Source: Candidatus Thorarchaeota archaeon (GTDB lineage Archaea > Asgardarchaeota > Thorarchaeia > Thorarchaeales > Thorarchaeaceae). Taken from it: DNA of 64,000 nucleotides. Both the position numbers and the translations under genes were made by a program. Every line of letters starts with the position of its first letter. The stretch's first letter is position 1. The notes below the pieces were generated by a model, which made no database searches, had not been told where the DNA came from, and saw only the letters and a program-made list of their open reading frames with translations. Shown here in pieces: positions 36,382 to 61,841 of the stretch. Location of the stretch: positions 96,001-160,000 of the forward strand of contig JAFGAR010000101.1 of NCBI GenBank assembly GCA_016933575.1, written 5' to 3'.

Positions 36382-36465
36382 ATCCACTCCTAAAAATTGC
36401 CAACATGGGTCAAAGACTCGTATTTATCAATGTAATATGAAAACTGGAGATTGGTTGCAGCCTCA

Positions 36466-39996: not shown

Positions 39997-42165
39997 ATGC
40001 AGGGCAGAAACATGCGTCGCGCCTGGGTTTCAATGATTGTTGTATTCTTTCTTACTGTTCTTGTATCTGCACCATCAACTAATTCTACTATTTCGCCATC
40101 ATATTCGGATCCTAACATCCGGGGACAGATTACTTTCTCTATTGAGAGAAACTGGACTGCGAATATAGTCCTTGTGAATTATGATGATTCCATAATCGAC
40201 AAATCTGTTCTTCTATCAGGTTTGCCAACAGAGAGAGTGTATGCAACATCGATGGGCTACATCAAGTACTGGATTGAATACAATGTGTATTTTGCCAGCT
40301 CATTATTCGTTACGCAACTCACAGATGTTATTCTGGATAACTCCATGAATGGCACTGATACTGGAACCTGTGTAAATGAAACTTCCTTATTATATCAACA
40401 GGCAAATCCGGATGAACCACAGACTATCTTCTATTCTCGTGATGGACGTAAGATTGATGGATATGTAATTGAGGATTGGCTTGAAGATAATCCTGTTATC
40501 GATCCTCCAGATCTTGGATATACGCTATATCTGTTCAATTTCTCCTCTCTAGATAGCTCAGGTCATTCTCTTGAACATTGGTATGATTATCACCCAATTG
40601 ATCCTGATACTGGGCAATCTCAAAACTGGTTTAGATTAGAATGGGACAATGAACTGAATCCTGATGTTTCTCTGGACTATCCTTTCTTTGGTGGACGGTA
40701 TAATTCATTCATTGTTGACCCAAGCGCCCATCAATGGTACCTGAAATGGTGCCGAATCTGGTGGAGTTCATCTATTAGCACTGAATACAATTTCTGGACG
40801 AAGGACCTTGAAGATATTCTCTCAGAGATTGATGTAGAATCGCCAGCTGGTATTACTGCTCTGAATGTGTATCTACGTGAATGTATCTGGGATCCTATAA
40901 CACAGTTGTTTTTCCCATATCAACACCAACCTGCAAAGTATGTTGAATCTGGTCTTTTGAGGTCTCTTGTTTTCTGTATGGATGTTGATGAAGGAATCTC
41001 AATTGATAGCTTAACATGGATTACAGATGCAGAGATGCAAAAGACCCATCTTGAGGAGTTGTATCCTTTCATAACTTGGGATGTGCAGGTAGACTTCCTT
41101 GACATTGATGACCATCTTGATTGGAATAATACGTTCTGGGCTGATGCTATAGTGGAACCTAATGGTACAGTGATTGCAGATGGATACAATATGTTCTATG
41201 CAATCTATGATGATATGAGACCTTTGTATATTGATGTTGATGATGAAAATATCAATGTCTTTGGAGTGGTCTTCATAAAACAACAAATGGAGATGCATTA
41301 CTTTGGTCTGGCGTACACCGGACTTGGTGGTGGTGGTCAGACTGTCATTTGGAAATCGCATGAGCGATATTATCGTCCTGATGGTGTGACTCAAAAAGAT
41401 GGTATTTCATCAGTTCAACTTCATGAGACCATGCATGCAGTCGGATTTCATCACACTTGGCAGCATGAGCACTACGCTAGTGATTTTTGTTATAGTCCGA
41501 TGGGTTATTTTGCATTCCATAATGGGACATCAACTTTTGACAAGAACTGGGTGCAAGGAACATACCTTGATCAGATGGAAATCGAGCTCTTTGAGAACTT
41601 CACTACAGAACAGGAAAATGTTGGTCCGGATGAACGTGCCGAGACGTATCTAGCTGAGAGTAATGCAATATCCAGTTTTAACAGAGTGAGGACACTGTAT
41701 GATAAAATGGACTGGTTGGGGGCTTTTGATGCTCTCTGTGATGCTCGAGACTGGACTCGACGTATGAAGTTTTCAATGCTAGACACAACCCCTCCCATAA
41801 TCAATGACTGGAGCATCACACAAACAACATCAGGAGCTTTCAGTCTTTGGGCAGATATCGCTGATGATCTATCAGGGATTGAGAATGTAAGTATCTACTA
41901 TCAGGTAGATGGAGCTGTCCAAGAGTATTCGGCTGCATGTGTTTACAATGGGAGTCACTGGATAGGTACTATTTCATCTACATCTGCAAGTCAATCTATT
42001 ATTTCTTGGATCAAAGTCTGGGATTGGGGTATGAACTCCGCAGAGAGTGAAAGAATTAGATGGACTGTGGCTGCAGCTGCGCCTCCTTGGTATTTGTATA
42101 TCTTGCTCTTCACCGGAGTCGCTTTAGTTGCAATAGTCATTATCTTTGTTATTAGGCGTAGATAA
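39997..42165 (+). CDS. Membrane-anchored metzincin zinc metalloprotease
   Basis: Signal peptide; HETMHAVGFHH = HExxHxxGxxH (41422-41454); SPMGY Met-turn; C-terminal TM ending IRRR. Confidence 0.8.
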   Translation: MQGRNMRRAWVSMIVVFFLTVLVSAPSTNSTISPSYSDPNIRGQITFSIERNWTANIVLVNYDDSIIDKSVLLSGLPTERVYATSMGYIKYWIEYNVYFASSLFVTQLTDVILDNSMNGTDTGTCVNETSLLYQQANPDEPQTIFYSRDGRKIDGYVIEDWLEDNPVIDPPDLGYTLYLFNFSSLDSSGHSLEHWYDYHPIDPDTGQSQNWFRLEWDNELNPDVSLDYPFFGGRYNSFIVDPSAHQWYLKWCRIWWSSSISTEYNFWTKDLEDILSEIDVESPAGITALNVYLRECIWDPITQLFFPYQHQPAKYVESGLLRSLVFCMDVDEGISIDSLTWITDAEMQKTHLEELYPFITWDVQVDFLDIDDHLDWNNTFWADAIVEPNGTVIADGYNMFYAIYDDMRPLYIDVDDENINVFGVVFIKQQMEMHYFGLAYTGLGGGGQTVIWKSHERYYRPDGVTQKDGISSVQLHETMHAVGFHHTWQHEHYASDFCYSPMGYFAFHNGTSTFDKNWVQGTYLDQMEIELFENFTTEQENVGPDERAETYLAESNAISSFNRVRTLYDKMDWLGAFDALCDARDWTRRMKFSMLDTTPPIINDWSITQTTSGAFSLWADIADDLSGIENVSIYYQVDGAVQEYSAACVYNGSHWIGTISSTSASQSIISWIKVWDWGMNSAESERIRWTVAAAAPPWYLYILLFTGVALVAIVIIFVIRRR

Positions 42166-42220
42166 AAGTAAGACATAAGGATAGCACGAGTTCGCAAAAA
42201 CGACATTCATATTACTGACG

Positions 42221-42258
42221 ATTTTTCGAGAGAGATTCAATTTTTCGAAAGGGATTCA
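42221..42258. repeat. Tandem 19-bp direct repeat upstream of the giant-protein genes
   Basis: ATTTTTCGAGAGAGATTCA / ATTTTTCGAAAGGGATTCA (2 mismatches). Confidence 0.7.
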
Positions 42259-42350
42259 ATCAGCATCTATTCATATAGTAGAAGGCACAACACTCCACTG
42301 TCAATAGCATAGGTGTAACTATAGCTATGACCATGTAGGAGACCATCCAA

Positions 42351-45300
42351 ATGAGAATAACGAGACTGATGGGTTTGCTTCTTATACTCCTCCCTCTACT
42401 TCTAGGTGTCTTCATCACCCCGCCTGTTTGGAGGGCTGGAACACAAGATTCTGCGGAAAGCAAGACCGTCGAACTCTCAAATGGAGAGAAGATTCAGATC
42501 GCTCCAGATGAGTATATCGAAGAGTATCATCTTTCTGATGCTCCCACACAGATGTCAGGAACTGGAGACTCACTCAGAGCCAATGAGTCTGGAGTTCGTG
42601 TAGACACTTTCACAGATGAACCACTTTACTATAATTCAGCAGGTTCTACAACCACTACAGCTAATCTATCTGTACCGATTGGAGAAGGCTGGGAGTCGTA
42701 TGCTGTCTACACTGATGTGACGAGCATTACAGAAAACAGAACATGGGTTCAAAACTCTGGTCTTGATGACTCATCAAGTTGGACATTTCTATCTCATGAT
42801 GAACCTTCAGTCTTTGGTCCGTCTTATACAAACGCTATGACCTCTCAATGGGAAAATAATGGTCATGGCGCTGGAGATGGTTGCGCATATTTCTACATGG
42901 ATGGTTATTACTATGATTTAGGTGGAGGTCTTAGAGGTGACTGGTATGATGTTGGTGATAAAGCCTACATGGTTCAGGATCTTACAATTGATCGTGGTGA
43001 TGTTTCTAAGATAGGAATCTCATTGGACTACTGGGGTGATGTTGCTTGGGGTATCATGACAGGTTTCTTCGAGTTGTTCGTTTCCATCGGAGATCCTGAT
43101 AATGGCGGAACATATCTTTGGAACATGCCTTTTGATGCTTTCACAGATGATCTCACATGGTACTCAACTGGCTACATTGAAATCGATATCTCTTCTGTAA
43201 CACTGCCCAATATCCCACTCTGGGTAGGTCTACGAACGACAGCTTTTGAGTGGTGGCGTCCTGACATCAATCCTGTTGGCCGAATGGACAATATTGTGGT
43301 GTATGTCACAGCTAAAGCTGCTCCATCAGATATCAATTTGCAGATGAATGGAGTAGATGTATCAGATGTCATTCAGGGTTCAAATCCAATTTTTGGTCTT
43401 GGCACAGCTTGGTACGTCCCAGTTGTTCCCTGGACTGAAGGTGCTGCCTATGCTAACTTTTCTTGGACTCCTATTCCTAATCCTCCTGATCCTGACTTCA
43501 ATATCAATATCGCACTAGATGTGGATGTGTATGTGTTTGCACGAAAAGTAAACAGCTTGACTGTAAATGACACAGAACTAATTACATTAGGTGACAACTT
43601 TGTGGTCTCAAATGCGACTTCTGTTAGCTGGGAAACAAATTACTATCTCACAATACCTGGTGGATATGAAGACCAATTCTTCTTCAATTTATCAATCCCG
43701 CTGAATCGGGATATCACATTTGTTTCTGAACCTGCTCATCGATATACAAACCTTACAAGTGATTGGTATTTTGGAAATCCTGGTGATGGGGTTGTTAACA
43801 TTTCAGTATATGATATGGGACTTTCTGACCCTAACGGTTTCTGGATGATTCGTGGAACTTCACCAAATATGGTTACAAACTTGCAAGTCTGGGATGACAC
43901 TCTAAGTCAGTGGGTCCAAACAAAGACTTTCAGAGCAAACGAAGACACGCGATTTAGAGCAGTCCTACCATCATTCTATGAAGATGATGTAGTGACATTT
44001 ACCATTTATGATTCAAATGGTAACATTTGGGATACAGTAACAGGTACAGTTGATTCATCAGGTTTCGCAGTATCCACCTATGTAAATTTGGATGCTGTCA
44101 CCGCTGAGGTTGGATCTTGGGAAGTTCAAGCATATGTGGGAGATAGCATCTCCAGTCCAGATGTCCATAACATTGGATTTTATCGAAGATCTTTCAGCAT
44201 AGTCCATAGTACACAATTGAGTATCAAGTATCCTATTGCAAGCCGTATAACATGGAGTATCAATGTGACATATGGTTCAATAGTCTTCCTTCAATTACGC
44301 GTGAATGATACTGATAATGGAGACCTCCTAGCTGGTGGAATGCTGACTTACACTGGGGGTCTTGGCAGCGGCACTGCAAATGATCTGGGTACAGGTGAAT
44401 ACAGTATCACATTGAGCACAACTCTACACACAAATGGCGCTTATAGTATGAATCTTGCTTGGTCAAAAGGCTACTATGATTCTCTCATCGATACCTTTAC
44501 TGTAAATATCATTTATGAAACAGAATTCCTCTCTCCTGATGCCCCTGGAATTGATGTAGCTAGTGGGAACGATGCAGTCCTTCATGTTCATTTTGAAGAC
44601 ATGCTAAATCAACCAATTGATGGGGCTTCAATTGTATGTAACTGGTCACAGAGTTATGCAATAACACCTGAAGGCTCTGGAGATTATGTACTTAGTCTAG
44701 ACACTTCTGGAATGACTCTCGATCTCTATCCGGTTCTCATAACTATATCAAAGGACTATTATCAGACTCGATCAATTATTCTTAGAGTTGAAGTAAGAGA
44801 ATTGCGTGCTTCTGCGATACCATCTTCGAGCTTACTCTCACTTCCAGTTGGCTATACTACTTCATTCACGATAACATATACCGATACAGATCTTCAAGCT
44901 CCAATAACTGGTGCTGCAGGAATTATCAAGTGCAATTGGTCTGATATTCATTCGTCTGGAGATCAAAATTATACAGTGACCGAAACTACACCTGGAATCT
45001 ATGAGGTTGTTATCTTCTCGATGGATGACGATGTTCTTGATTCTTACGATGTATTGTTCACAGTTGAGCGCTATGGCGCACAGAATCAATCGTTTGTTGT
45101 GACTGTTGAGTTACGAACCCATTTGACTTCTCTATACCTAGAGAATTCAGTGGAACCTACTGCATATACCGGAAATATCACTGTCAATCTCGTCTATTAT
45201 GATGTAGATGCTGATACGGGAATTGTTAATGGTACGACAAGTGGTGGTTATGTTGAGTTAATTATAACGAGTCCTACCCTTGTTTCTCCGACCTTCTATG

Positions 45301-48300
45301 TGTATTCAATATCGCCGGAAGGACTCTATGTAATCCATATTCCAGCCAATCAATGGGGAAATATTGGAACTAAGACTCTTAACATTGAAGTCAACTGGAT
45401 AGGAGTGAACCTGAAATATTCCAATCTAACTCTCTCAACCCCTGCCACGATTACCGATGCTCCAACGGATATCTTCATTGGAGAGAGCCCTGTCGTAACA
45501 GCTTTTGGTGAGAATATCACATTCACAATAATATACTATGACATTAGTGCACTTACAGGCGTTGTTAATGGAACAGGTCCGTTCTCAGGAAATGTTCACA
45601 TCTATATTGATGTCTTAACAGCTGGGGAAACAATTACACAAGCTGATATGACTATCACTGAAATTGATTTTGTAACAAATCCCGGTGAATATAGAATTAC
45701 ATTCAATTCCACACTGCTTAGTGGACTAGGTACAGTACAACTAAGACTCTGGTTCAATTGGACTGATGCGGCACTACCTTACTATCAGAATCAAGTGATA
45801 GTGATTGCTGTCATCACTTCACATCGCTTAACAACTGTTGATCGGAATCCACTCCCTCTGACCCCATTTGATGAAATGGTAAATCTCACATTCACATATC
45901 GTGATTCGCTCAGTGGTTTAGCGATTCTAAACAGTTCTCAACTCTCGGTCAGTGTACCAGGTTACCCGTCTTTCAACATCTACTATCTTGGTGATATCTC
46001 AGGTATCTTTGTTGTAGAAATTAATACCTCTGTATTTATTGTCGGTAGCCATTCATTCTACCTAGACATTGTCTGGGTCGGTGCCCCTTATTATCAAAAC
46101 AGGACAAATGTGCAGATTTTCATTACAGTGAGAGAGCGCTACACTGATTTGACCCATGGTACCTATTCGCCTATCCAAATTGGCAATACACTCAATTTGA
46201 ACTTCACTTACCGCGACCTAGATGATTACACATCTATCGGAATGGATGGCGCAACTCTTTCCTTGGATGGATGGTTAACTGGTAGTTATTCTGTTGAAAA
46301 TATTGGAAATGGCATATACACCCTACATCTTGACACGACCGCATTCAGTAATACAGGAACATTCTTAGTAAATGTCACAATTATCTACGGTGGATCACGT
46401 AATTGCGCTGATGCATCAGATGTATTCTATCTAACACTTACTGTCCGACGTACACAGCTCACAAGTGACCTACCTGAATTGGCTCCCTTCCTAACAAATG
46501 CTACTATCGTGGTTTATTATACTGATGATACGACTGATGCTGGAATTTCCGGTGCCGCTGCGAATGCATCTTGTTCAGCAGCCATTGATCCACTGCAATA
46601 TGGTGTAAATTATTGGGTCATAGATAATATGGATGGTAGCTATACTATTATTATTGATACTGCAGCGTTAGGCAATTTTGGACCCTATACAATCGCAATA
46701 ACAGTGACATGGAACTCCGGTTGGCCTTTCTATCAACAGCGTGTTCGCAATGTTAACATCGAAGTTTCTCGCCGACCAGTTTCACTTACCGTTTCAAAGT
46801 CTCCATTGAATACTCCATTCCTATCTAATGCTACCTTTGAAATCACTGTGACAGATCAACTAGATAGTTTTGGAATCACCTTGGTAAAGAATAATCTAAT
46901 TCTTACTCATGGTATCGGAGGTACACTCATCACAAATAATCAATACTCCATAATAGGATCCAATGGTGTCTATACGATTTCTATCAATTCTCAGATACTC
47001 ACTAGCATTCTAGAAAATGAACATCCTATATTCATTCTATTTGTTTGGGGTGATGCAATCCCATATTATTCGAATGCATCTTCTACCACTGAAGTATCTA
47101 TAATTACAAGATACACTCAAGCTGTTGTTTTGCAGACTCCACCAGGTTATTACTACTTCAACATGAGTGCTCTATTGCGATATAATGACTACTTGACGGG
47201 TACAGGAATTATAGATGCAACTGTCACAATATCATGCTTGAACACAACTAGTTTCGATTATTGGTTCATAGATAATAGTGATGGAACTTATACTGTTCTT
47301 ATCGATACAAACACTCTATCTGGATTGGGGCGTTACTATTTCCGTGCTAATTTTACATATTTTGGAACTCCATACTATAGGAATGTCACTAATGTTCAAT
47401 TCAATCTTGTAGTTAATCCAGTTTCTACAACTCTAAGCTTTACATTACCTCAAGGAGTTACCTATTACCTTGGAGATATGGTCTATGCCAACATCTCTTA
47501 CTTCTCTATTGAGTTTGGAACTGGGATTGAAAGCGCAACAATCAGTACTGATTGGGACACACTCTATGGTACTAGTAGCACCATCAGCGTTCTAGCGCCT
47601 GGAATTTATCAAATAGCTATAAACACATCTGGTTTGAATGCTCAGCAGTACCAGTTCACTGTGAATGCAAGTAAGTACCTTCACCTAAGCAAATCCATTC
47701 AAGCAGAAATCCTAATAGCTGCAATTCCAGTCGAGATTGAACTTGTGTTTACACCTCAGAATCCAATGTGGGGTGATTCAGTTCAGTTCCAAGCTAATAT
47801 CACAGATGCAAGAACGGGTTTCCCAGTAATTGGAGCTTATGTTAATTTCACTCTGGAATTTACGACATTAGTCATGTCTTCTGTTGCGGATGGTCTTTAC
47901 AATTGTACATTAGATACATCAACATTGACATCTGGTGAATTCAATATCAGAATACAATCCACCTTACTCAACTACGAGACAAGACAGAAGGATTTCCAGA
48001 TACGGATTGAGAAAGTAGCGTCTAAGATTCTTGCTTCGATTGACCCTCAATCTGCGGTCGATGGTCAGATTGTAACTCTCGAGGTTGATTATCTAATATA
48101 TTCCTCAAGTCTGTCTATTTCCACAGGTACTGTGACCTTCTCCTGGATTGGAGGTTCTGGTTCAATAAGTTGGTCCATTATCGATGGCAAATATGTTGGC
48201 ACTTTTATCGTTACTGGAGCAGATGTTGGTAGCTACCAGATTCTTGTGCAAGCCTCATCTCCAAACTATAAGAGTGTGAGCTATCTTGTGACTATAGAGA

Positions 48301-50180
48301 TTACCGAGATTCAGACGGAGCTTGTTCCTATTTCTGAATCTATTGTTTCAGTGAACTACAGGGACATTGCAATAATTACTGTGTACCTCAATAACACTGA
48401 TCTTAATCAACCAGTGACTGGAGCGTCCATGAGTTTCGGAGTTGGAACAATTGTTGGTGATCTAATTGAGTTACCAACTCCTGGTTACTATAATGCCTTG
48501 GTAAATACAAGTGAATTAAGTGTGCAAGAATGGACTGTGTCAATATCCAGTGACAAACTCGGATATACTCCAGCTTCAATACAATTCACACTTGATGTAC
48601 AAGAGATTGAAACTGAGATTGTCATATTGACCTCCGGAACAGTATCCGGGTATTATGGACAAATCGTCACTTTCTACTTCCTCTTCAACGATACTCATGC
48701 CAATCTCTCTATCCCTGGAGCAATCACTAACTATACTCTTGAAACTCTGAGGGGATCTCTTGTTGATCATGGCAATGGAACATATAGTCTGACTCTAAAT
48801 ACAACAGTTGTGGTTGCAGGTACTGTGCCTCATGACATCACAGTTTCTTTCAGAAAAGACAACTATGAATATTCATCTGGTCTTGTAAAATTGCTTGTCC
48901 TTCCAATTCCAACATCTATCATAGGTCCTGTTGAAGCAACATTTCCAGTGTATGATAACTATTCAATGCTATTCAGCTTCAGAGATACTTTGAATGATGA
49001 GTGGATTACTGACGGAACTGCAACTGTAGTATGGGAATTTGGTACTGCATTATTGACAAATCTCAATAATGGATCTTATATGTTCGGGCCAGCTGAGGCT
49101 AATTTAACCAATTCTCTCCAAGATCGTTTGAATCCATATAGAGTCAGAATATCAATCTCAAGGACTAATTATTCTAGAACAGACATTGAAGTCTTTCTTA
49201 CGATACGCGAAATCAGCACCCAAGTTATTCATATAGATCCTATAACACCAATCTATGTAGGAAGTCTATTTTACGTAAATGTAACATTCTACGATACTGA
49301 TCATAATCTTGTGATATTGAATCCAGTCATCACTTTTACTTCAGACAGTGCAATCGATGATGGTCTCGCCAGAGAAACCAGCCTCGATATTGATTGGGGC
49401 AATGGAACCTATTCTATAGCGTTCAGGGCTCCAAATCTTGCATTCTACACACTGGAAATAGCTTTCACCAAGACTGACTATGTACTCGGTTCTATTAGCC
49501 TTGACATTTATGCTAAACTGAGTCCTGAACAAGAGGCTTTGGTCAGTACTTTCCAATATAGTACAATTGGAATTCTGGCAATTGCTGCTCTGGCTGCACT
49601 CTATTTCAGAGTACTATCAGTGCCAAGGCTCCTTAGAATCTTACGTCGAATGGTTTCAAGCTTAGGCAGAGGTGTAATACCAAAACCAGCCAATGTTCCT
49701 ATTAGACGTCAAATGATTCTATCAATGATGAATGAGGACCTTGCATCAATTTCTCTTGTGAAAACTATGGACGACATCTCCATATCTACGGTTGATGTTG
49801 CGGCGATGGATGTTGAGAGTCTATTAGATGAACTAGCTTTTGTAGTTGGTCTTACTGAGAGTGACGTAGATACACTCAGAAGAGACCTGGATCAGATGCG
49901 CCCCAGTGAGCGGGCTGGGTTCATCAATGAAGTTCTGAAGCAAGAGAGGGCTCGTCGAGCCAAAGAACTGGCTGAAGCTGATCTTGCGACCAAAGAGGGC
50001 GTTCCAAGCGAAGCCGTTGAAGAGCGGTTAAGCGAAGATGAACTACTGCATCTAAAGGAGCGTTTGATGAAGATGGGTATCGAGGAAACTGAAGCTGACC
50101 TGATGGTTGAGCAAGCTAAGAATTTGACAAAAGCAGAGATAGATGCTCTGCTTGATGAGATAGGAGGGATGGAAGAATGA
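42351..50180 (+). CDS. Giant (2609 aa) Ig-like repeat type-I membrane glycoprotein A
   Basis: Signal peptide; many ~100-aa repeats (Y.D.D...GA, DN.DG.Y...IDT); many N-x-S/T sequons; TM near 49560-49610; ~190-aa charged tail. Confidence 0.85.
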   Translation: MRITRLMGLLLILLPLLLGVFITPPVWRAGTQDSAESKTVELSNGEKIQIAPDEYIEEYHLSDAPTQMSGTGDSLRANESGVRVDTFTDEPLYYNSAGSTTTTANLSVPIGEGWESYAVYTDVTSITENRTWVQNSGLDDSSSWTFLSHDEPSVFGPSYTNAMTSQWENNGHGAGDGCAYFYMDGYYYDLGGGLRGDWYDVGDKAYMVQDLTIDRGDVSKIGISLDYWGDVAWGIMTGFFELFVSIGDPDNGGTYLWNMPFDAFTDDLTWYSTGYIEIDISSVTLPNIPLWVGLRTTAFEWWRPDINPVGRMDNIVVYVTAKAAPSDINLQMNGVDVSDVIQGSNPIFGLGTAWYVPVVPWTEGAAYANFSWTPIPNPPDPDFNINIALDVDVYVFARKVNSLTVNDTELITLGDNFVVSNATSVSWETNYYLTIPGGYEDQFFFNLSIPLNRDITFVSEPAHRYTNLTSDWYFGNPGDGVVNISVYDMGLSDPNGFWMIRGTSPNMVTNLQVWDDTLSQWVQTKTFRANEDTRFRAVLPSFYEDDVVTFTIYDSNGNIWDTVTGTVDSSGFAVSTYVNLDAVTAEVGSWEVQAYVGDSISSPDVHNIGFYRRSFSIVHSTQLSIKYPIASRITWSINVTYGSIVFLQLRVNDTDNGDLLAGGMLTYTGGLGSGTANDLGTGEYSITLSTTLHTNGAYSMNLAWSKGYYDSLIDTFTVNIIYETEFLSPDAPGIDVASGNDAVLHVHFEDMLNQPIDGASIVCNWSQSYAITPEGSGDYVLSLDTSGMTLDLYPVLITISKDYYQTRSIILRVEVRELRASAIPSSSLLSLPVGYTTSFTITYTDTDLQAPITGAAGIIKCNWSDIHSSGDQNYTVTETTPGIYEVVIFSMDDDVLDSYDVLFTVERYGAQNQSFVVTVELRTHLTSLYLENSVEPTAYTGNITVNLVYYDVDADTGIVNGTTSGGYVELIITSPTLVSPTFYVYSISPEGLYVIHIPANQWGNIGTKTLNIEVNWIGVNLKYSNLTLSTPATITDAPTDIFIGESPVVTAFGENITFTIIYYDISALTGVVNGTGPFSGNVHIYIDVLTAGETITQADMTITEIDFVTNPGEYRITFNSTLLSGLGTVQLRLWFNWTDAALPYYQNQVIVIAVITSHRLTTVDRNPLPLTPFDEMVNLTFTYRDSLSGLAILNSSQLSVSVPGYPSFNIYYLGDISGIFVVEINTSVFIVGSHSFYLDIVWVGAPYYQNRTNVQIFITVRERYTDLTHGTYSPIQIGNTLNLNFTYRDLDDYTSIGMDGATLSLDGWLTGSYSVENIGNGIYTLHLDTTAFSNTGTFLVNVTIIYGGSRNCADASDVFYLTLTVRRTQLTSDLPELAPFLTNATIVVYYTDDTTDAGISGAAANASCSAAIDPLQYGVNYWVIDNMDGSYTIIIDTAALGNFGPYTIAITVTWNSGWPFYQQRVRNVNIEVSRRPVSLTVSKSPLNTPFLSNATFEITVTDQLDSFGITLVKNNLILTHGIGGTLITNNQYSIIGSNGVYTISINSQILTSILENEHPIFILFVWGDAIPYYSNASSTTEVSIITRYTQAVVLQTPPGYYYFNMSALLRYNDYLTGTGIIDATVTISCLNTTSFDYWFIDNSDGTYTVLIDTNTLSGLGRYYFRANFTYFGTPYYRNVTNVQFNLVVNPVSTTLSFTLPQGVTYYLGDMVYANISYFSIEFGTGIESATISTDWDTLYGTSSTISVLAPGIYQIAINTSGLNAQQYQFTVNASKYLHLSKSIQAEILIAAIPVEIELVFTPQNPMWGDSVQFQANITDARTGFPVIGAYVNFTLEFTTLVMSSVADGLYNCTLDTSTLTSGEFNIRIQSTLLNYETRQKDFQIRIEKVASKILASIDPQSAVDGQIVTLEVDYLIYSSSLSISTGTVTFSWIGGSGSISWSIIDGKYVGTFIVTGADVGSYQILVQASSPNYKSVSYLVTIEITEIQTELVPISESIVSVNYRDIAIITVYLNNTDLNQPVTGASMSFGVGTIVGDLIELPTPGYYNALVNTSELSVQEWTVSISSDKLGYTPASIQFTLDVQEIETEIVILTSGTVSGYYGQIVTFYFLFNDTHANLSIPGAITNYTLETLRGSLVDHGNGTYSLTLNTTVVVAGTVPHDITVSFRKDNYEYSSGLVKLLVLPIPTSIIGPVEATFPVYDNYSMLFSFRDTLNDEWITDGTATVVWEFGTALLTNLNNGSYMFGPAEANLTNSLQDRLNPYRVRISISRTNYSRTDIEVFLTIREISTQVIHIDPITPIYVGSLFYVNVTFYDTDHNLVILNPVITFTSDSAIDDGLARETSLDIDWGNGTYSIAFRAPNLAFYTLEIAFTKTDYVLGSISLDIYAKLSPEQEALVSTFQYSTIGILAIAALAALYFRVLSVPRLLRILRRMVSSLGRGVIPKPANVPIRRQMILSMMNEDLASISLVKTMDDISISTVDVAAMDVESLLDELAFVVGLTESDVDTLRRDLDQMRPSERAGFINEVLKQERARRAKELAEADLATKEGVPSEAVEERLSEDELLHLKERLMKMGIEETEADLMVEQAKNLTKAEIDALLDEIGGMEE

Positions 50181-53100
50181 AAACTACACACAGACTCATC
50201 CCCATTATGTTCGTTATTGTAATGATGGTAGCACCGGTATTTCTCACCCATAATCCATCAATGGGAATGACTACAGGCCAAGATACAACCAGTGATTTAG
50301 GAACTCGTGAAGTTGATATTGGAAATGGTGAGATGATTGAACTTGCTCCTAACGAGATTCTCCACACGTATGTACTCACCGAACAAGGGTGGGTAGAATG
50401 GAGTAGTACCAGTGATCCACTTATTGGTTCTGAATATGGAAACAGCATTAATATTTTCAATAATCGACAGATGAAATACATACCCGGTAGTGCCACAACC
50501 TCAGTTCAAACAGGTATCTCAATTGGCACGGGTTGGGAAGCTTATGAAGCACGAGTGGCAATTAGTAGTCTTACTGAGAATAGAACATGGATTACTAATC
50601 CTGGATTTGAAGGAGGCTACACAGGTTGGACTCGAGTGGCTACTTCTAATGCAGGATACAGTACTGTTAGCGCAAGTTGGATCGATGATGGTCATGGAAC
50701 AGGTAACGATTGTGTTGAAGTCGATATAAACTCAGATAGCACAAGTGAGCCATTCTATTATGACCAAGGTGATGATGCATGGTATCAGCAGGTTGCAACT
50801 GTAAATCGTGGTACTGTGGTTTGGGCTGCTCTTAGAATGAATTTCTGGGCCGATACTGTGGACGACACTCACTATGGTATGACCGGTTCATTCAGGTTAT
50901 ATGCAAATATCGAAGGAACTGATATCTGGCGAAGAGTCTTTTCCGATATTGGTGCTGAAGAAACTTGGTATGACACTGGTCTACTCACGGTAAATCCATC
51001 AGTCTTTGGGCTACCCGGCGATACGAGCATAACCACAAGAATAGGTATGTTGTCACTAGCTACTGTTGGATATGCACCAAATATCCATCCTAAAGCCAGA
51101 TTCGACAACATTGTACTCTATATGAAGACTCTAGTCAATCCTAGTGAAATCAATCTTCAGATGAATGGACTTAGTATCAGCAATAGTGGAACAAGAGGCA
51201 TTTGTTCAATTACTCAAACACCTGGTACTCCTTGGACAACATCTCCAGTTACACTCACATTCACGTGGACTCCAGTACCAACAACGCCAAATCCCAATAG
51301 CGAGATAAGAATTGACTTTAACATTAATGTGAATATGTTCGCTAGGCATTACGATCTTGATAGTCTCTATGAAATTAGTCCAACATCTTTCGGAGAACGA
51401 TTTACTATCCAAAATGGCACTAATGCTGAATTCACATCTTACTTTAGAGCCAATATTCCCACAGGATATGCAAATCGGTACTTCTTCAATGAGACAATTC
51501 CAATAGATCGTGACGTTTACTTTGTAGCTCAACCATTAGCACCAACCACCAATCTTACCTCTGGATGGAATGGAGGGGACCCTGGCGATGGCTTCCTAAA
51601 TGTATCAACATACTTGATTACAACCGAACCCGGAAGGTATGGATATTGGAGAATCTTGAGTAGGTCTCCAAATATGATATCAGATGTGCAGCTTTGGGAT
51701 CCAAACTCAAGTATGTGGACTCGCGATGCTGATTTACGTGCTGGTGATATCAGCCGAGTATTGGTGAATGTTGGTTCACAATATGCTGGCTCTTTAGTAA
51801 ACATCACTCTATACAAACCGGATGGTTCTGTTTGGCAAACATTCAGTACTACTGTGAACTCGACTGGATATGCAACAACGAGTAGCTTCACACTCTCAGG
51901 CGCAACAGCACCTGCAGGTAGTTGGATGGTACAAGCTACGACTAGTAATGTAGGTGCAGGAGGAGAATGGACATCTGTGGGTCTATTCAAGAGACCATTT
52001 ACAATAACTCATGAATCCACTATCAATCTACAATATCCTACAGACGCCATTGGGACTATGATAACCAATGTTACCTATGGTGATCTACTCCTGATTATTC
52101 TGGAAGTAGAAGATATTGACAGCTCTGTATTGGTACCGGGTGGTACCCTTACTCTGGATTGGTCTTTTGGAATTGATACTTTTGATGATAATGGAAATGG
52201 TCAGTATACTAAAGTCATAGACACATCTGAACTACCCGGAAAAGGTCAATATACAATGGATTTGGATTGGGTGCACCCAAGTTTTGATCCATCCAACACT
52301 GCTCTCACAATCAACATTAATTATGCAGCGACTCTGACATCGCCTGACTATCCAGGAATTTCAGGTCCTGTGGGTGATGACCAATCATTCACTACTCGAT
52401 TTGCTAATGTGAATGGCACCGGGATCACCACTGCCAATCTATGGTGTAATTGGTCGAATCCGTATACTGTTGTTCCTCTTGGTTTGGGTAATTATGAATT
52501 CCAACTAGACATGACTGGTATACCAATTGGAGAATATCCAATTGAGGTACACGCAACAGGACCATTTGTTGAACCTCAATCCATGTTGATGTATGTTGAA
52601 GCAAGAGAAATCTATAACTCAATCTCTTACACCTCAAGCCAACTCTCTATACCCTTGGGTGAAGCAGCATCATTCGTCTTGACTTGGACTGATACTGATC
52701 ACAATGTCCTCATCTCTGGCTCAGCTTCATCTATATCATGCAACTGGACCCCATTCCACTCATCTGGAGACACAAATTATACTGTTGTTGAGATATCTCC
52801 TGGTAAATATAACATTACCATCTTTACCAAGAATACAGATCCATTGACAGGAACAGATCTCATCACTGTTAGATTCAACGTGTTCAAGACGAATTACAGA
52901 AGTCACATATTTGACATCGGTGTTGCGATACGAAAGAGGAACACGCTCTTTGTTCTCGATGCTCCGATAAGTCAGACTCCATTTGGAAGCACTATCACTG
53001 TTTTGGTATTCTACCAAGATACTGATTTACGTGTAGGTATTGGTAATGCTACTAATGAAGTAAAAATCACAATAACATCAACAGAGATTGGAACAGTAGC

Positions 53101-56100
53101 ATTCACATGTACGCCATCCTCTCTTGGGCTAGGCCACTACAATATTTCAATTGATAGTGGACAATGGGGAAGCATTGGTTGGAAGGACCTTAGTATATTC
53201 ATAGAGTGGACAGGAGTAGTCGATAAATTCTATAGTCAGACCATCAATACTTCAGCACGGATAACTGGTACTGATACTGACCTCTATCTTGAGATAGCCC
53301 CAACCGCAACGTACTATCTTGACACATTTACATTCACAGCAGTCTACTATGATACAGTTGGGCTGCAAAGGATTAGTAATTTAACAAACAATGTCTTCAT
53401 ACTTCTCACTGCCCTAGATACTGGACATTCAGTAACTCAGAGTGATTTCACCATTGTTGAATCTGGGACAGTACCTGGTACTTACATATTCACTTTGGAT
53501 AGCACTCTGTTTCCAAGTACTGATACATTCCGGTTCCAGCTTGATTTCATGTGGAAGAAGGGTGCGATCCCTAGGTATGAAAATGCAACAATGGTTGTAT
53601 CATTGATTGTACTAGATCGCCCCACATATATCGACTACTCTCCCATCTCATCTACACCATACGGAGAGGATGCAGAACTTCGGTTTAGCTTTGTTGATAC
53701 ACTCACATCGACAAAGATTGATGATTCTGCTCAATTAATTGTGTCTTTGAACGACCTTGGAGTATCATTCTCATATTCGTTTAACGCATTAACACATGAA
53801 TTCACACTTCTGATTGACACTGGCTCAATTGGTAGTATTGGTGTCCATATCATCCATCTGAACTTGACATGGAGTGGAAGTCCATTCTATGCATCAGTCA
53901 CCAATAAACCAATTACCTTGTCAGTGATACTTCGACCTACGCAGCTTTCCCACCTGTCCTTTGCTCCAAGTCAGTGGGGAAATAACATCACCATTCAATT
54001 CGTTTATACTGATATTGTCGTTGGATCAACGGCTGGAATGTCTGGAACATTGACTCTGAATATTGCAGTTGACAAATATTCTGTTGTATATGGTCCAGAA
54101 GGGCATTTCTTTGTAACTATCAACACAACAGCGTTTGCATCTGATGGACTGTATTCAGTCACAGCTACTGTGGTTCATACAAATCCGAACTATCAGACTG
54201 CAATTGAGACCTTTGACATATCAGTTCTAAAACGTTCTACACAACTTGGTTATGATAGCCCTGATCCAGCTTCCTATGGGTCCAATGTGAGCTTGCATAT
54301 CATCTACACTGATGATAGTACTGGTAGAGGAGTAGTTGGTGCAACAATTGCCGTCACAGGAAATGGCACCTATAGCTTGGTGTTGAACACTAATTATTGG
54401 ATTACCTACACAGGAGATGGGCGCTATCTTATAGAAGTCAATACAACAGCACTTGGAGTTCCTGGTGTCTACTTGTTGGAAATCGATGTGAGCTTCAGCG
54501 GAGAACCATTCTATCTTCCAGGTTCTCAGGATGTCATTGCCAGAGTTGTAGAGAGAACAACTCAGATTCTAATCACACAAACACCTGGTGAAGTACCATT
54601 CCAAGAGAATGTTGTATTCCGATTCAAATATACTGACTTTCTATTAGGTACAAAAATCAGTATTGACCAGTCAGATATTACCCTTACTCATGGTGTATCT
54701 CACACTGTGATTACTTCTGGTCAATACACTCTCAATGAATATGCAACATATTATGAGATTATCTTTAGTTCTCTGATCATCAATCCAAGTGCACTTGAAA
54801 CCGGGCATCCGATTCAGATTACAATTGATAAAGGCTCAGGAGAACCTTACTATGCTCCAAGAAGTACTTCAACATCAGTGACGATAATACAAAGATCCAC
54901 TCAAATTCTGTTACCACTCGTCGAAGATACACCATATTACGACAACATAACAATTCAATTGAGTTATATTGATTATCTAACTGAAACAGGAATTGACGAT
55001 GCATTACTTGTCATCTCAAGTGACAACTGGACTGTACCTGAATATACTCTAATACGTGAAGGAAATGGTGTTTATACAATCCTCATAAATAGCAGTTTAT
55101 TTGGTGACATCGGTAATGTATACTTTGATATCACACTGAGTAAATCTGGTTCCCCATTCTATACAAGTAGGACAAGATATGATGTCCCAGCGACTATTAC
55201 AACCATCCAAACTTCTATCATTGCTGAAGCTCCAGCAGCTGGTTCTACCGCAGTTGGAGCTCCCATTGAAGTTACCATAACCCTTCGTGATTTCGACCAC
55301 GATAAGCTTCTTGAAGGTGCAATTATCTCCACGAATTGGACACAACTATTCGGAACAGGTTATACTATTGATGAATTAGGATCTGGAGTATACACAATTA
55401 CCTTAATCACTGAAGGCCTACTAGCTCAAAAGTTCACCTTTCAAGTCTGGGCGGAGAAATCTTACTATGCTACAGCGATAGCGACGGTGTCTGTTCAACC
55501 TGGAGCAGCAACTGTTGAGATATATCTGGAGAAATCAACCTATTATTCCGATTGGGGTGAAATGGTCAATATCACGTTCCAAGTGAGAGAACCATATTAC
55601 AATACTCCAGTAACAGGAATGACTGCTACACTCCTTTGGAATGGAGTACTATATGGTTTCACAGAAGGTACGAATGGATACTATACTTTGTTACTTGATT
55701 CATCTGAGAATAATTATGGTATCTATAATCCTCGGATTACAGTTACAAAATTATACTATCAGCAGAAACAAAGAACCTTCACATTAGTCGTTTCAAAGGC
55801 CACTGGTCAGATTATACCTGAATCTTCACTCTATGAGGTCGTCGCAAACACTTCTGTGAATATTCAGATTTATCTCAACGACACCGTTTCTGCATTACCA
55901 GTAACTACTGCTACTGTCAACATAGAATTCAATGGAACACTTTACTCTCTAACACATATTGGTGGTGGATTCTTTAGTACTAACTTACCTGTAACCAATT
56001 TTGCTATTGGCCAGTATCCTCTGATAGTTCGCGCTAATGCAGTGAATCATGTATTCCTTGAAATCATCATAGATGTCAATATTGTGCCAATCTACACAGA

Positions 56101-57919
56101 ATTGAAATTCACTGAATCCATATCTCTAATCACTGCATACTTTGGCGATAGTATTAACATCTTAGTGATCTATAATGATACTTACTACAATACGCTAATT
56201 TCTAATGCAAACATATCGTACACTCTTGGTAGCTTGACCGGAGTATTGACGGAAGAAGCAAATCATACCTATAGTGCATCAATTGATATTAGCTCTTTGG
56301 GTTCCCAATCGATATACCTCAGGTTGACTGCCTCAAAGGCAGGTTATGCAACTGCGCTGAGGTCAATCATTGTGACAATCCTACCAATTCCCACATCAAT
56401 AAGTGTACTACCTAGTGATGCTTTGAAGTCAGGTTACTTTGGTAATAAATTGAATTTCACATTCTTCTATAACGATTTGCAACATGGTGTCGGTATTGCT
56501 GGTGCTAATGTTGTAGCTACTTGGGAAGGAGTTGGTTATACAGTCTATGATTTTGGAAATGGCAGATATGTCGTTCAGGTTACGTTATCAATAACAACTC
56601 CTGGTCTATATGACTTGGCTGTAAGATTCAATCTTCAGAATTATACTGCACGTTCGATAACGACAAAAGTTGAAATCTATGCAACACCTGCACAGATTTA
56701 TGGTCCTGCAACCTACTCATCGCCTATTAATGATACAATCACTATTGAGTTCGTTATCAAGAATTCATTCACTAGTAGTATCATCTCTGACATTGTCGGA
56801 ACTGCTTCTTCAGTTCAATTAGGCGATATAGACCTGCAATTACTACCAAGTGGAAACTATACTTTGAATCTTGAGGGAGACCTCCCATATGGATTCTATA
56901 GCTTTACAATTTATTTTGCTACAACAAAATACGTAATATCTCCATTCTATCTTGAAATAGAAGTTAGACAAGTAAAGAGTCAATCTCAACATGGGTCTCT
57001 AAACGTACTCACTCAACCCGGTGGTTCTGTTGAGTTTACAGTGACTTACCTAGATGCAGATCACAATCAAGGTATTCCTGGTGCTAATATCTCCTTTGTC
57101 TATGATGATAATTTAGTCCAATACTTGGAGGAGTACACTATTGATAATGATGGTACATATACCTTCTATTTCCTATCAAGAGCTGGAGGGACTGCAACGA
57201 TTGAGATAACCCTTAGTAAAGATGGGTTCGACACGCAAGTTATCATTCTAAGAGTCCAATCAGATATCTCCGCCGAACAGCAGTTCCAACAGACCTTGAC
57301 AATTGGTGGTGGATTTGGTATCCTCATCGTTGCCTTGCTCCTCATAGGTTATGTTAAGGTCTGGTCTATCCCCTGGTTGATTCGTCAAATGAACAGAATG
57401 ATTCGTGTTCTCTCGAAGGGTCGAGTTCCAGGGCCTCCAAAAGTTAAGTCCAGACAAGATATAGCGATGGTTATCGTCAATGAAGAGATTGCATCATTGC
57501 ACCTTCAGAAACCACGAGAGGATATTGCACCTGAGCCCATTGTGACAACTGTGCCAGAAGTCAATGAACTTCTTGAAGAACTTGCTTCTATTACTGGACT
57601 TGGAGAAGCTGAGATTGAAGCTTTCCGTGCAGATCTCTCTAGGATGAAAGCCAGTGAGCGACCAGGATTCTTGAAAGAAGTCATTAATCAAGAGAGAGCT
57701 CGTCGAGCTGATGTCTTGGCAAAACCAGTAAAAGAAACAAAAACTCCAGAGCAAGTTCCTCTCTCTGAATTGCCCGGAGAACTTGAAGATCTCAAACAGA
57801 AGCTTCTCAAGAAAGGCATGGCAAGCGATGAGATTGATATCATCATCAACGAAGCCAAGTCTCTCTCAAAGGCAGATCTCGATGCGCTTCTTGATAGTCT
57901 TGGAATTGATCTAGATTAG
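50177..57919 (+). CDS. Giant (2580 aa) Ig-like repeat type-I membrane glycoprotein B, paralogue of A
   Basis: Collinear with A (IG.GWE.Y, TENRTW, GHG.G..C, INLQMNG, CNW, SER.GF..EV..QERARRA); ATGA overlap with the A stop; TM near 57302-57355. Confidence 0.85.
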   Translation: MKTTHRLIPIMFVIVMMVAPVFLTHNPSMGMTTGQDTTSDLGTREVDIGNGEMIELAPNEILHTYVLTEQGWVEWSSTSDPLIGSEYGNSINIFNNRQMKYIPGSATTSVQTGISIGTGWEAYEARVAISSLTENRTWITNPGFEGGYTGWTRVATSNAGYSTVSASWIDDGHGTGNDCVEVDINSDSTSEPFYYDQGDDAWYQQVATVNRGTVVWAALRMNFWADTVDDTHYGMTGSFRLYANIEGTDIWRRVFSDIGAEETWYDTGLLTVNPSVFGLPGDTSITTRIGMLSLATVGYAPNIHPKARFDNIVLYMKTLVNPSEINLQMNGLSISNSGTRGICSITQTPGTPWTTSPVTLTFTWTPVPTTPNPNSEIRIDFNINVNMFARHYDLDSLYEISPTSFGERFTIQNGTNAEFTSYFRANIPTGYANRYFFNETIPIDRDVYFVAQPLAPTTNLTSGWNGGDPGDGFLNVSTYLITTEPGRYGYWRILSRSPNMISDVQLWDPNSSMWTRDADLRAGDISRVLVNVGSQYAGSLVNITLYKPDGSVWQTFSTTVNSTGYATTSSFTLSGATAPAGSWMVQATTSNVGAGGEWTSVGLFKRPFTITHESTINLQYPTDAIGTMITNVTYGDLLLIILEVEDIDSSVLVPGGTLTLDWSFGIDTFDDNGNGQYTKVIDTSELPGKGQYTMDLDWVHPSFDPSNTALTININYAATLTSPDYPGISGPVGDDQSFTTRFANVNGTGITTANLWCNWSNPYTVVPLGLGNYEFQLDMTGIPIGEYPIEVHATGPFVEPQSMLMYVEAREIYNSISYTSSQLSIPLGEAASFVLTWTDTDHNVLISGSASSISCNWTPFHSSGDTNYTVVEISPGKYNITIFTKNTDPLTGTDLITVRFNVFKTNYRSHIFDIGVAIRKRNTLFVLDAPISQTPFGSTITVLVFYQDTDLRVGIGNATNEVKITITSTEIGTVAFTCTPSSLGLGHYNISIDSGQWGSIGWKDLSIFIEWTGVVDKFYSQTINTSARITGTDTDLYLEIAPTATYYLDTFTFTAVYYDTVGLQRISNLTNNVFILLTALDTGHSVTQSDFTIVESGTVPGTYIFTLDSTLFPSTDTFRFQLDFMWKKGAIPRYENATMVVSLIVLDRPTYIDYSPISSTPYGEDAELRFSFVDTLTSTKIDDSAQLIVSLNDLGVSFSYSFNALTHEFTLLIDTGSIGSIGVHIIHLNLTWSGSPFYASVTNKPITLSVILRPTQLSHLSFAPSQWGNNITIQFVYTDIVVGSTAGMSGTLTLNIAVDKYSVVYGPEGHFFVTINTTAFASDGLYSVTATVVHTNPNYQTAIETFDISVLKRSTQLGYDSPDPASYGSNVSLHIIYTDDSTGRGVVGATIAVTGNGTYSLVLNTNYWITYTGDGRYLIEVNTTALGVPGVYLLEIDVSFSGEPFYLPGSQDVIARVVERTTQILITQTPGEVPFQENVVFRFKYTDFLLGTKISIDQSDITLTHGVSHTVITSGQYTLNEYATYYEIIFSSLIINPSALETGHPIQITIDKGSGEPYYAPRSTSTSVTIIQRSTQILLPLVEDTPYYDNITIQLSYIDYLTETGIDDALLVISSDNWTVPEYTLIREGNGVYTILINSSLFGDIGNVYFDITLSKSGSPFYTSRTRYDVPATITTIQTSIIAEAPAAGSTAVGAPIEVTITLRDFDHDKLLEGAIISTNWTQLFGTGYTIDELGSGVYTITLITEGLLAQKFTFQVWAEKSYYATAIATVSVQPGAATVEIYLEKSTYYSDWGEMVNITFQVREPYYNTPVTGMTATLLWNGVLYGFTEGTNGYYTLLLDSSENNYGIYNPRITVTKLYYQQKQRTFTLVVSKATGQIIPESSLYEVVANTSVNIQIYLNDTVSALPVTTATVNIEFNGTLYSLTHIGGGFFSTNLPVTNFAIGQYPLIVRANAVNHVFLEIIIDVNIVPIYTELKFTESISLITAYFGDSINILVIYNDTYYNTLISNANISYTLGSLTGVLTEEANHTYSASIDISSLGSQSIYLRLTASKAGYATALRSIIVTILPIPTSISVLPSDALKSGYFGNKLNFTFFYNDLQHGVGIAGANVVATWEGVGYTVYDFGNGRYVVQVTLSITTPGLYDLAVRFNLQNYTARSITTKVEIYATPAQIYGPATYSSPINDTITIEFVIKNSFTSSIISDIVGTASSVQLGDIDLQLLPSGNYTLNLEGDLPYGFYSFTIYFATTKYVISPFYLEIEVRQVKSQSQHGSLNVLTQPGGSVEFTVTYLDADHNQGIPGANISFVYDDNLVQYLEEYTIDNDGTYTFYFLSRAGGTATIEITLSKDGFDTQVIILRVQSDISAEQQFQQTLTIGGGFGILIVALLLIGYVKVWSIPWLIRQMNRMIRVLSKGRVPGPPKVKSRQDIAMVIVNEEIASLHLQKPREDIAPEPIVTTVPEVNELLEELASITGLGEAEIEAFRADLSRMKASERPGFLKEVINQERARRADVLAKPVKETKTPEQVPLSELPGELEDLKQKLLKKGMASDEIDIIINEAKSLSKADLDALLDSLGIDLD

Positions 57920-57925
57920 ATATGG

Positions 57926-57951
57926 TGAAGCTGGTTTCGAGGCCAGCTTCA
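57926..57951 (+). terminator. Hairpin terminator after giant gene B
   Basis: TGAAGCTGG/CCAGCTTCA followed by TTCTTCT. Confidence 0.65.
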
Positions 57952-58026
57952 TTCTTCTAATCAAATTTCATGTCTATCGAACTTGATGGAAAACAATTAA
58001 GAGTGATTCCTTGTTCGTGTGCAACC

Positions 58027-59118
58027 ATGGACATCGATGAAAGAATCAAGCTTATTGCTGGTGTTGGCGAAGAAGTTGTCACCATAGAAGAGCTAAGGAC
58101 TCTATTAGAGGAGAAGAAGAATCCAATCGCATATGATGGATTTGAACCATCCGGGATGGCACATCTTCCATTTGGCATCTACAGACCACTATTATTGAAG
58201 GATCTTATTAAAGCTGGAATCCGATTCAAGATTTGGCTTGCTGATTGGTTTGCTTGGATCAATAATAAGATGGGCGGAGATTTAGAGAAGATAAAGACAA
58301 CAGGAGATTATTTCATTGAAGTCTGGAAAGCTGCAGGAGTTCCCACTGATAAGGTTGAGTTTCTATTTGCTTCAGATGCAATGGACACCATAGACTACTG
58401 GGAGCGTGTGATTCGTATTGCGAAGGCTACAACAATTGCCAGAGCAACCAGAGCCCTCACGATTATGGGAAGAAAAGAAGGAGAGATGTCTGAGGTGGCA
58501 GCTTACTTCTATCCTGTCATGCAAGTTGCTGATATCTTCACTCTTGAAGCTGATATCACACAACTAGGTCTTGATCAAAGACGGGCAAACATGTTAGCAC
58601 GAGAAGTCGGACCTAAACTTGGACTCTGGAAACCAGTTGTAATAAGCCATCATATGCTCATCAACCTTGAAGGAGCAAAAGAACCAGAGGGCTTTGATGA
58701 TGAGATGGCTCGGGATTATCATTTGATAGATTCAAAAATGAGTAAGAGCAAACCATCTTCAAGTATCTTTGTGCATGATACTACTGATGAGATTCGTTCT
58801 AAAATTATCGCAGCCTATTGTCCACCAAAAGAAGTGAACGGAAATCCACTATTGGACTATGCCAAAGAGATTATCTTTAGAAAGTATGATGATTTCACCA
58901 TTGAACGAAAGACGAAGTTTGGTGGCGATGTGACCTTCACCAGTTATCAAGATCTTGAGAGTAGTTACACAAAGGGCGACCTTCATCCCATGGATTTGAA
59001 GAATGGAATCATCCTTTATCTAGATGAAATGATTAAACCTATTCGTGAGCATTTCGAAAAGAAAGGAAGTGCTAGCGATCTATACGAGCAAGTAAAGAGC
59101 TATCAGATCACGCGATAA
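58027..59118 (+). CDS. tyrS: Tyrosyl-tRNA synthetase, archaeal/eukaryotic type
   Basis: AYDGFEPSG, ADWFAWINNK, YPVMQVADI, G.DQR, KMSKS, LHPMDLK; ATG at 58027 is preferred over 57970. Confidence 0.95.
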   Translation: MDIDERIKLIAGVGEEVVTIEELRTLLEEKKNPIAYDGFEPSGMAHLPFGIYRPLLLKDLIKAGIRFKIWLADWFAWINNKMGGDLEKIKTTGDYFIEVWKAAGVPTDKVEFLFASDAMDTIDYWERVIRIAKATTIARATRALTIMGRKEGEMSEVAAYFYPVMQVADIFTLEADITQLGLDQRRANMLAREVGPKLGLWKPVVISHHMLINLEGAKEPEGFDDEMARDYHLIDSKMSKSKPSSSIFVHDTTDEIRSKIIAAYCPPKEVNGNPLLDYAKEIIFRKYDDFTIERKTKFGGDVTFTSYQDLESSYTKGDLHPMDLKNGIILYLDEMIKPIREHFEKKGSASDLYEQVKSYQITR

Positions 59119-61826: not shown

Positions 61827-61841
61827 TCTGGATTCTCCTAT

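Follow-up and report, generated by a model that had tools for sequence, protein, structure and literature searches.

Two giant genes, A and B, joined end to end on a Thorarchaeial contig (JAFGAR010000101.1), encode paralogous type I membrane proteins that, at a probability of about 0.55, are co-translated subunits of one fibril or receptor on the surface of Thorarchaeia, in which the heads would be of sugar-binding type and the tail would dock in the cytoplasm. Both genes lie in the window, by which is meant the whole stretch of DNA analysed, 64,000 nucleotides from Candidatus Thorarchaeota archaeon (contig positions 96,001 to 160,000, forward strand). A and B appear to be made, inherited and diversified as one unit, and they probably act together in a surface coat or in adhesion fibres. 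An earlier sequence-only reading of the window had singled out the pair as a candidate heterodimeric adhesion receptor. The pair and the elements that join and close it are as follows, in window coordinates.

42351..50180, + strand: gene A, open reading frame for a 2609-residue type I membrane protein
50177..57919, + strand: gene B, open reading frame for a 2580-residue type I membrane protein, paralogue of A
50163..50180, + strand: coupling element, consisting of GGAGG (50163-50167), a 9-nucleotide spacer and ATGA (B start over A stop)
57924..57953, + strand: hairpin with a 13-bp stem and a T-rich run, 3' of the B stop

The proteins align by BLASTP as a single collinear block of 2647 columns with 32% identity, and the sequence-only reading, which had described two collinear, diverged paralogues of about 2600 residues, is reproduced down to the exact coordinates. 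It had also noted an ATGA stop/start overlap and taken it as a sign of coupling. The ATG of B (50177-50179) indeed lies over the TGA of A (50178-50180), and the A stop overlaps the B start at all 25 junctions of the family, as ATGA or GTGA in 23 and TAATG in 2 (overlaps of -4 and -1, respectively). GGAGG is invariant at these 25 junctions, 9-13 nucleotides 5' of the B start, and codes for a conserved Gly-Gly at the C-terminus of A. A genome of the sister family (G025) has a 4-nucleotide gap between A and B. Together, GGAGG and the overlap would cause translation of B to follow that of A, giving about equal amounts of the two proteins. The hairpin said to close the pair is stable (-18.9 kcal/mol, z -4.2, with none of 200 shuffles equally stable) and recurs directly past the B stop in 23 of 25 orthologous loci, its stem sequences differing between genera.

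The window's own genome contains a single A/B pair. Orthologues of A, which are 50-76% identical within the genus, occur in all genera of the family, and an A/B head is found in 62 of the 87 genomes of the class and in 17 of its 17 genera; given this conservation, the pair is not due to chance. Wherever contigs permit, A lies directly 5' of B, with order and strand conserved (at least 40 genomes), and wherever contigs permit judgement A and B are both present or both absent. Single hits to A or B come only from fragmented assemblies or contig ends. The pair is thus class-wide and old, and A and B are neither the singletons nor the recent duplicates that, in the sequence-only reading, would have spoken against a receptor of two subunits.

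A phylogeny of the two clades (36 rows) supports this age. The family's A sequences and its B sequences are each monophyletic with 100% support, and the two copies of G025, a genome of the sister family, attach to the branch that joins the A and B clades, the upstream copy on the A side. Judged from this branching order, the A/B duplication clearly happened before the family's 16 genera radiated and probably, though this is not proven, before the two families split. An independent duplication in G025 is disfavoured, with a log-likelihood 55.7 lower, but at p 0.06 in the approximately unbiased test it is not rejected. Adjacent giants of the Hermodarchaeota type (G035, L036) were considered as A/B orthologues and set aside, as only one of them has an A/B head.

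A and B also come in matched types. Within the genus, identity to the window's A is either 65-74% or 50-53%, and identity to the window's B is either 64-70% or 44-49%; the two distributions are bimodal and concordant. Both types occur in the window's genus, always matched between A and B. One genome, G075, is the only one seen to keep both: its contig C22 carries a tandem A-B-A-B array (loci L045 and L046), the first pair of type 2 and the second of type 1, and these pairs belong to two sub-lineages that are deep, and congruent between the A clade and the B clade. The neighbours in the cluster have no type split (aminoacyl-tRNA synthetase, 74-82% identity; upstream protease-like gene, 55-62%; acyl-CoA synthetase, 71-77%). 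Identity between the types climbs from head to tail, in parallel in A and B.

Head: A 0.38, B 0.41
Distal stalk: A 0.44, B 0.45
Proximal stalk: A 0.61, B 0.54
Transmembrane (TM) helix and juxtamembrane region: A 0.66, B 0.65
Tail: A 0.81, B 0.84

This parallel diversification as matched types argues that A and B work together. Heads that co-diversify above tails that are frozen would fit a variable external ligand common to both proteins, or an interface between the heads, combined with a conserved internal partner, although the pattern is only suggestive of this.

Outside the membrane, both proteins consist of a head carried on a long stalk. The segments of A, whose coordinates follow, were delimited by hydrophobicity, an AlphaFold2 (AF2) model and iterated hidden Markov model (HMM) searches.

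42351..42437, + strand: A signal peptide, residues 1 to about 29 (hydrophobic segment at residues 2-27; modelled as a helix, then disorder)
42723..43313, + strand: A head, CBM/MAM-like beta jelly roll, residues 125-321 (AF2 predicted local distance difference test, pLDDT, mostly 84-93)
43314..44210, + strand: further beta-sandwich domains of the A head, including a macroglobulin/Ig-like domain at residues 505-620
44238..49505, + strand: A stalk, 17 tandem Ig-like (Big-type) repeats, residues 630-2385 (from the iterated HMM and alignment)

The AF2 model of the first 670 residues of A, built from a 27-row alignment (pLDDT 76.9), is all-beta throughout the head. Its jelly roll resembles CBM16, CBM4, CBM61 and MAM domains (VIA Z 11-12), and residues 505-620 resemble the macroglobulin (MG) domains of C5/A2M (VIA Z about 11, root-mean-square deviation 1.8-2.4 A). 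For the model as a whole, the best Foldseek matches are a Nitrosopumilus S-layer protein (8c8o, at the top with E 9e-8) and then the ectodomains of Eph and RPTPmu (E 1e-6 to 4e-6). No Pfam or NCBIfam family exceeded its cutoff when the whole A and B proteins, the head, the tail or single repeats were searched.

The head of some A orthologues contains a further domain. In the A of genome G012 (L018:2496-3455), a six-bladed NHL-repeat beta-propeller of about 290 residues is inserted in the head (Pfam NHL, E 7e-39; teneurin-NHL, 6e-10). The propeller occurs in A, never in B, in many genera (also in G001, G045-47, G051, G053, G055, G056, G065-66, G068-69 and G087-89), and the window's A is without it. 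Its carriers are scattered over the A tree, which implies recombination or more than one loss.

The stalk has a fixed length. The iterated HMM resolves A into 17 repeats of about 100-115 residues (638-2378) and B into 16 plus a degenerate one, and across orthologues 17 repeats are present in every complete A and 16-17 are detected in every B. With an Ig-like domain taken as 3-4.5 nm, a stalk of 17 such domains would, if extended, be of the order of 60-90 nm. The repeats had been called filamin-like, a label that finds no support; the best matches of their profile are bacterial Big/invasin-type Ig-like domains (invasin, SiiE and FdeC, E 3.5e-4 to 0.03), with 5n40 (E 3.5e-4), 2yn3, 4e9l and 5ldy as matches in the PDB. 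N-glycosylation sequons are enriched in both ectodomains and only there, with 55 in A against an expected 29 +/- 4.8 (z about 5.4) and 41 in B against 27 +/- 4.7 (z about 2.9). Hydrophobicity reveals in each protein an N-terminal signal segment, one C-terminal TM segment and nothing else. Hence the overall layout first proposed, a signal peptide, a beta-rich head, an Ig-like stalk and one TM helix, stands.

A basic flank follows the TM helix in both A and B, in agreement with type I topology, and beyond it lies a large cytoplasmic tail.

49560..49628, + strand: A TM helix, residues 2404-2426 (hydrophobic segment 2404-2424)
49629..50177, + strand: A cytoplasmic tail, 183 residues (AF2 pLDDT 79.6)
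57296..57361, + strand: B TM helix, about residues 2374-2395 (hydrophobic segment 2372-2402)
57362..57916, + strand: B cytoplasmic tail, about 185 residues; by alignment, the same modules as in A, with B-specific signatures such as an SLGI ending

The model of the A tail is all-helical. Past the TM helix comes a juxtamembrane helix that is basic and amphipathic, and then two modules of three helices each, module 1 and module 2, separated by an acidic linker. Module 1 bears the near-invariant signature M-R/K-x-S-E-R-x-G-F...Q-E-x-A-R-R-A. Of 107 alignment columns that are invariant in the class, the tail supplies 25 (of its 183) and the stalk 66 (of its 1758); the jelly roll has none. The tail is therefore the most conserved region, as the description of large conserved tails had anticipated, with its length now corrected from about 190 to 183 residues. 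The tail could be assigned to no known family in Pfam, NCBIfam or a sequence-profile search of the PDB; Foldseek found no fold in the PDB below E 1, VIA in its wide search returned only generic three-helix bundles (Z of at most 6.6, under the noise level for helical models), and the ESM Atlas contained no usable match.

A profile of the tail, searched against 1.84 billion representatives, does recover relatives, in 185 clusters at E <= 1e-3. The matches are almost all at the C-termini of giant Thorarchaeota or Hermodarchaeota proteins, all annotated as hypothetical, and the other giants range from about 1000 to 5500 residues. Since the tail is present on about 185 clusters, many of them unpaired, it looks to be a general docking module of the lineage's surface giants and not a pairing device; the use of the conserved tails as a pointer to A:B pairing in the sequence-only reading falls with this result. 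Module 2 is present 1-5 times in other tails. Giants with four or five tandem copies of this unit of three helices and about 55 residues (G052:C1:1447996-1449321, P0172 and P0181) suggest a multivalent cytoplasmic binding platform. A likeness of module 2 to UBA, seen by eye, is unsupported by any search, and matches of the multi-copy relatives to three-helix RecX remain below cutoff (E about 1e-3). Apparently stand-alone tail proteins of 150 residues, annotated MgtE, are contig-edge artefacts, the contig running on into a frameshifted B.

In the arrangement that would best accommodate these features, A and B would be Sec-exported, N-glycosylated type I proteins, each presenting a distal jelly-roll head of sugar-binding type on a 17-domain stalk and each anchored by its single TM helix and folded tail of about 183 residues. 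They would most likely assemble side by side, as a heteromer or a mixed fibril. The variable heads may jointly bind an external ligand, which might be a glycan, a particle or a partner cell, and the near-invariant tails would dock on a conserved cytoplasmic partner.

Several observations weigh against A and B being subunits of one structure. Translational coupling and co-inheritance would also fit two separate proteins that are co-regulated. The matched types have few independent evolutionary events behind them, and for this reason patterns that treat A and B as a unit are only suggestive. The tail is common to many giants, unpaired ones included. The charges of the A and B tails do not complement each other, and conserved cysteines, considered as an interchain link, amount to two shared Cys-Asn-Trp-Ser/Thr sites with no convincing pair among them. 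Finally, the pair is absent from the good genomes G052 (a single contig), G097 (96% complete), G024 (99% complete) and G064. G097 has no A/B head and retains a 35-residue relic of tail module 2 (G097:C51:126978-127082), about 500 nucleotides from the upstream protease-like gene, which has the appearance of a scar left when the whole pair was deleted. With both genes absent from good genomes, and only a tail relic in G097, the pair has been lost as a unit and is not essential.

The foremost competing explanation, doubtful but deserving attention, is that A and B are co-expressed yet physically independent adhesins, forming two related fibrils of different ligand specificity, that share an operon for co-regulation only. 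The heads are strongly different (33% identity), an NHL propeller in A alone in many genera implies different binding properties, and other giants with this tail work unpaired. Against this, adhesins that act on their own are usually variable in repeat number and lost one at a time, whereas A and B both keep to 17 repeats, are jointly present or absent wherever contigs permit judgement, are always matched in type and have parallel gradients of divergence.

It is unlikely that the pair is the main structural coat of Thorarchaeia, that is, a two-component S-layer-like canopy or spacer and not a ligand-binding receptor. A coat would account for the head's top Foldseek match, which is a multi-Ig S-layer protein, for ectodomains rich in glycosylation sites with a C-terminal anchor, and for the class-wide occurrence of the pair. 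Moreover, the cultured Asgard archaea described in PMC9834061 and bioRxiv 10.1101/2025.11.06.686947 have no crystalline S-layer and do have unidentified "complex surface proteins". However, the pair is missing from several near-complete genomes, one of them a single contig. The head is the fastest-evolving part and has alternative types, which fits interaction with a ligand or antigen better than lattice contacts, and the folded 183-residue tail is unlike S-layer anchors; the neighbouring protease-like protein ends in RRR.

Improbable to a similar degree is a more elaborate form of the subunit idea, in which A and B would be an obligate heteromeric adhesion receptor, the shared tail would couple the surface to the Asgard cytoskeleton, to ESCRT/ubiquitin or to trafficking adaptors, and the matched heads would be exchangeable specificity cassettes. 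If true, the pair would connect outside and inside in the manner of integrins, as an archaeal counterpart that evolved independently. Very improbable is a transmembrane signalling receptor whose head would relay ligand binding through the TM helix to tails that recruit a signalling enzyme: the head-stalk-TM-tail layout is like that of Eph and RPTPmu ectodomains (VIA Z 10.7, in addition to the Foldseek matches) and the juxtamembrane and tail regions are highly conserved, but Pfam, PDB, Foldseek and VIA searches find no enzymatic or known signalling domain in the tail, the cluster contains no conserved gene for a kinase, phosphatase or GTPase, and a stalk of 17 domains would be a poor conduit for conformational signalling.

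The gene upstream of A is part of the same conserved neighbourhood.

39997..42165, + strand: 722-residue membrane-anchored protease-like protein, with a signal peptide, HExxHxxGxxH and a C-terminal TM helix followed only by RRR

Its metzincin zinc motif reads HETMHAVGFHH in translation. No family in Pfam or NCBIfam scores above cutoff, and the zinc motif gives a weak, 10-bit match to Astacin (E 0.6). The gene is the direct 5' neighbour of A in at least 32 genomes, spread over at least 13 genera, and is not upstream of A in G025, G001, G012 and some others. From this synteny, the protein probably matures or sheds A and B. The 185 nucleotides that separate it from A (42166-42350) include GATTCAAT as a direct repeat, along with TATA-like boxes that are AT-rich; gene A probably has its own promoter.

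The window contains further genes near the pair. Farther upstream, 32884-36381 (+) encodes a 1165-residue protein of type I, which combines a large ectodomain and a single TM helix with a cytoplasmic domain of about 300 residues and has no Pfam match; like A and B nearby, it is a surface protein whose cytoplasmic tail is folded. Between it and the giant-gene cluster, 36451-37587 (+) encodes a 378-residue leucine-rich-repeat protein (LRR_4/LRR_8, E about 1e-7). On the other side of the pair, four abutting genes at 59108-62921 (-) encode DUF362, UbiA prenyltransferase, PHP-domain and LPG_synthase_TM (flippase-like) proteins, and could form a lipid-linked sugar or envelope-modification operon beside the surface-protein cluster.

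The authors of the studies of cultured Asgard archaea cited above suggest that the complex surface proteins mediate cell-cell contacts relevant to eukaryogenesis. Full-text literature searches returned no description of the A/B family, and the pair is a concrete, class-wide candidate for these surface structures in Thorarchaeia. A large, strongly conserved cytoplasmic domain is unusual among prokaryotic surface proteins and implies a physical link between surface and interior. Testable handles are provided by the tail domain, by the stalk with its constant 17 domains, by the alternative types of head that are matched between A and B, and by the linked protease-like gene.

Among known systems, the pair had been likened to integrins and cadherins. 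As to architecture the analogy holds. Like integrin alpha and beta, A and B are two type I subunits with distal heads, multi-domain beta-sandwich legs, single TM helices and tails suited to docking partners, and in many genera A but not B has a beta-propeller in its head. The domains that define integrins are absent, however. There is no vWA/beta-I domain and no 7-bladed propeller, the NHL propeller of some A proteins being 6-bladed and the window's A having none; Pfam gives no integrin or vWA match in A or B, and Foldseek and VIA find no homology. In addition, A and B are paralogues of each other, which integrin alpha and beta are not, their stalk is about four times longer, and their tails are folded 183-residue domains without NPxY.

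RPTPmu and Eph likewise carry an N-terminal jelly-roll ligand domain, of MAM or LBD type, atop a rigid Ig/FN3 chain of beta-sandwiches in a type I protein, and 2v5y, 2x11 and 3fl7 are among the best matches of the whole model. The match is at the level of fold only (9-12% identity, low TM-score), and unlike these receptors A and B are archaeal, far longer and without kinase or phosphatase. The bacterial giant Ig adhesins (SiiE, LapA, MpIBP and invasin/intimin) share with A and B a tandem stalk of Big-type Ig-like domains and a distal binding region. As an associated protease, the protease-like protein encoded upstream of A recalls LapG. Unlike these adhesins, A and B are predicted to be Sec-exported and have a C-terminal TM helix and a cytoplasmic domain, with neither a type I secretion system (T1SS)/RTX signal nor an outer-membrane anchor, and no T1SS transporter is found among the neighbouring genes. 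The repeat number of A and B is fixed, and they form a paralogous pair.

Archaeal S-layer glycoproteins (the SLP of Nitrosopumilus maritimus and csg of Haloferax) resemble A and B in having a signal peptide, Ig-like domains, many sequons and a C-terminal membrane anchor. They end in a few basic residues or PGF-CTERM, whereas A and B are both membrane-anchored paralogues with a long folded cytoplasmic tail, and no PGF motif is seen in the A and B translations. The pair is also not universal in its lineage, which argues against an essential lattice. There are archaeal precedents for a two-gene operon, in SlaA/SlaB of Sulfolobus, and for a long stalk with a bound protease, in the tetrabrachion of Staphylothermus. 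In Sulfolobales, SlaA/SlaB combine a canopy protein without a TM helix and an unrelated membrane stalk protein; A and B, in contrast, are full-length paralogues, both with a TM helix.

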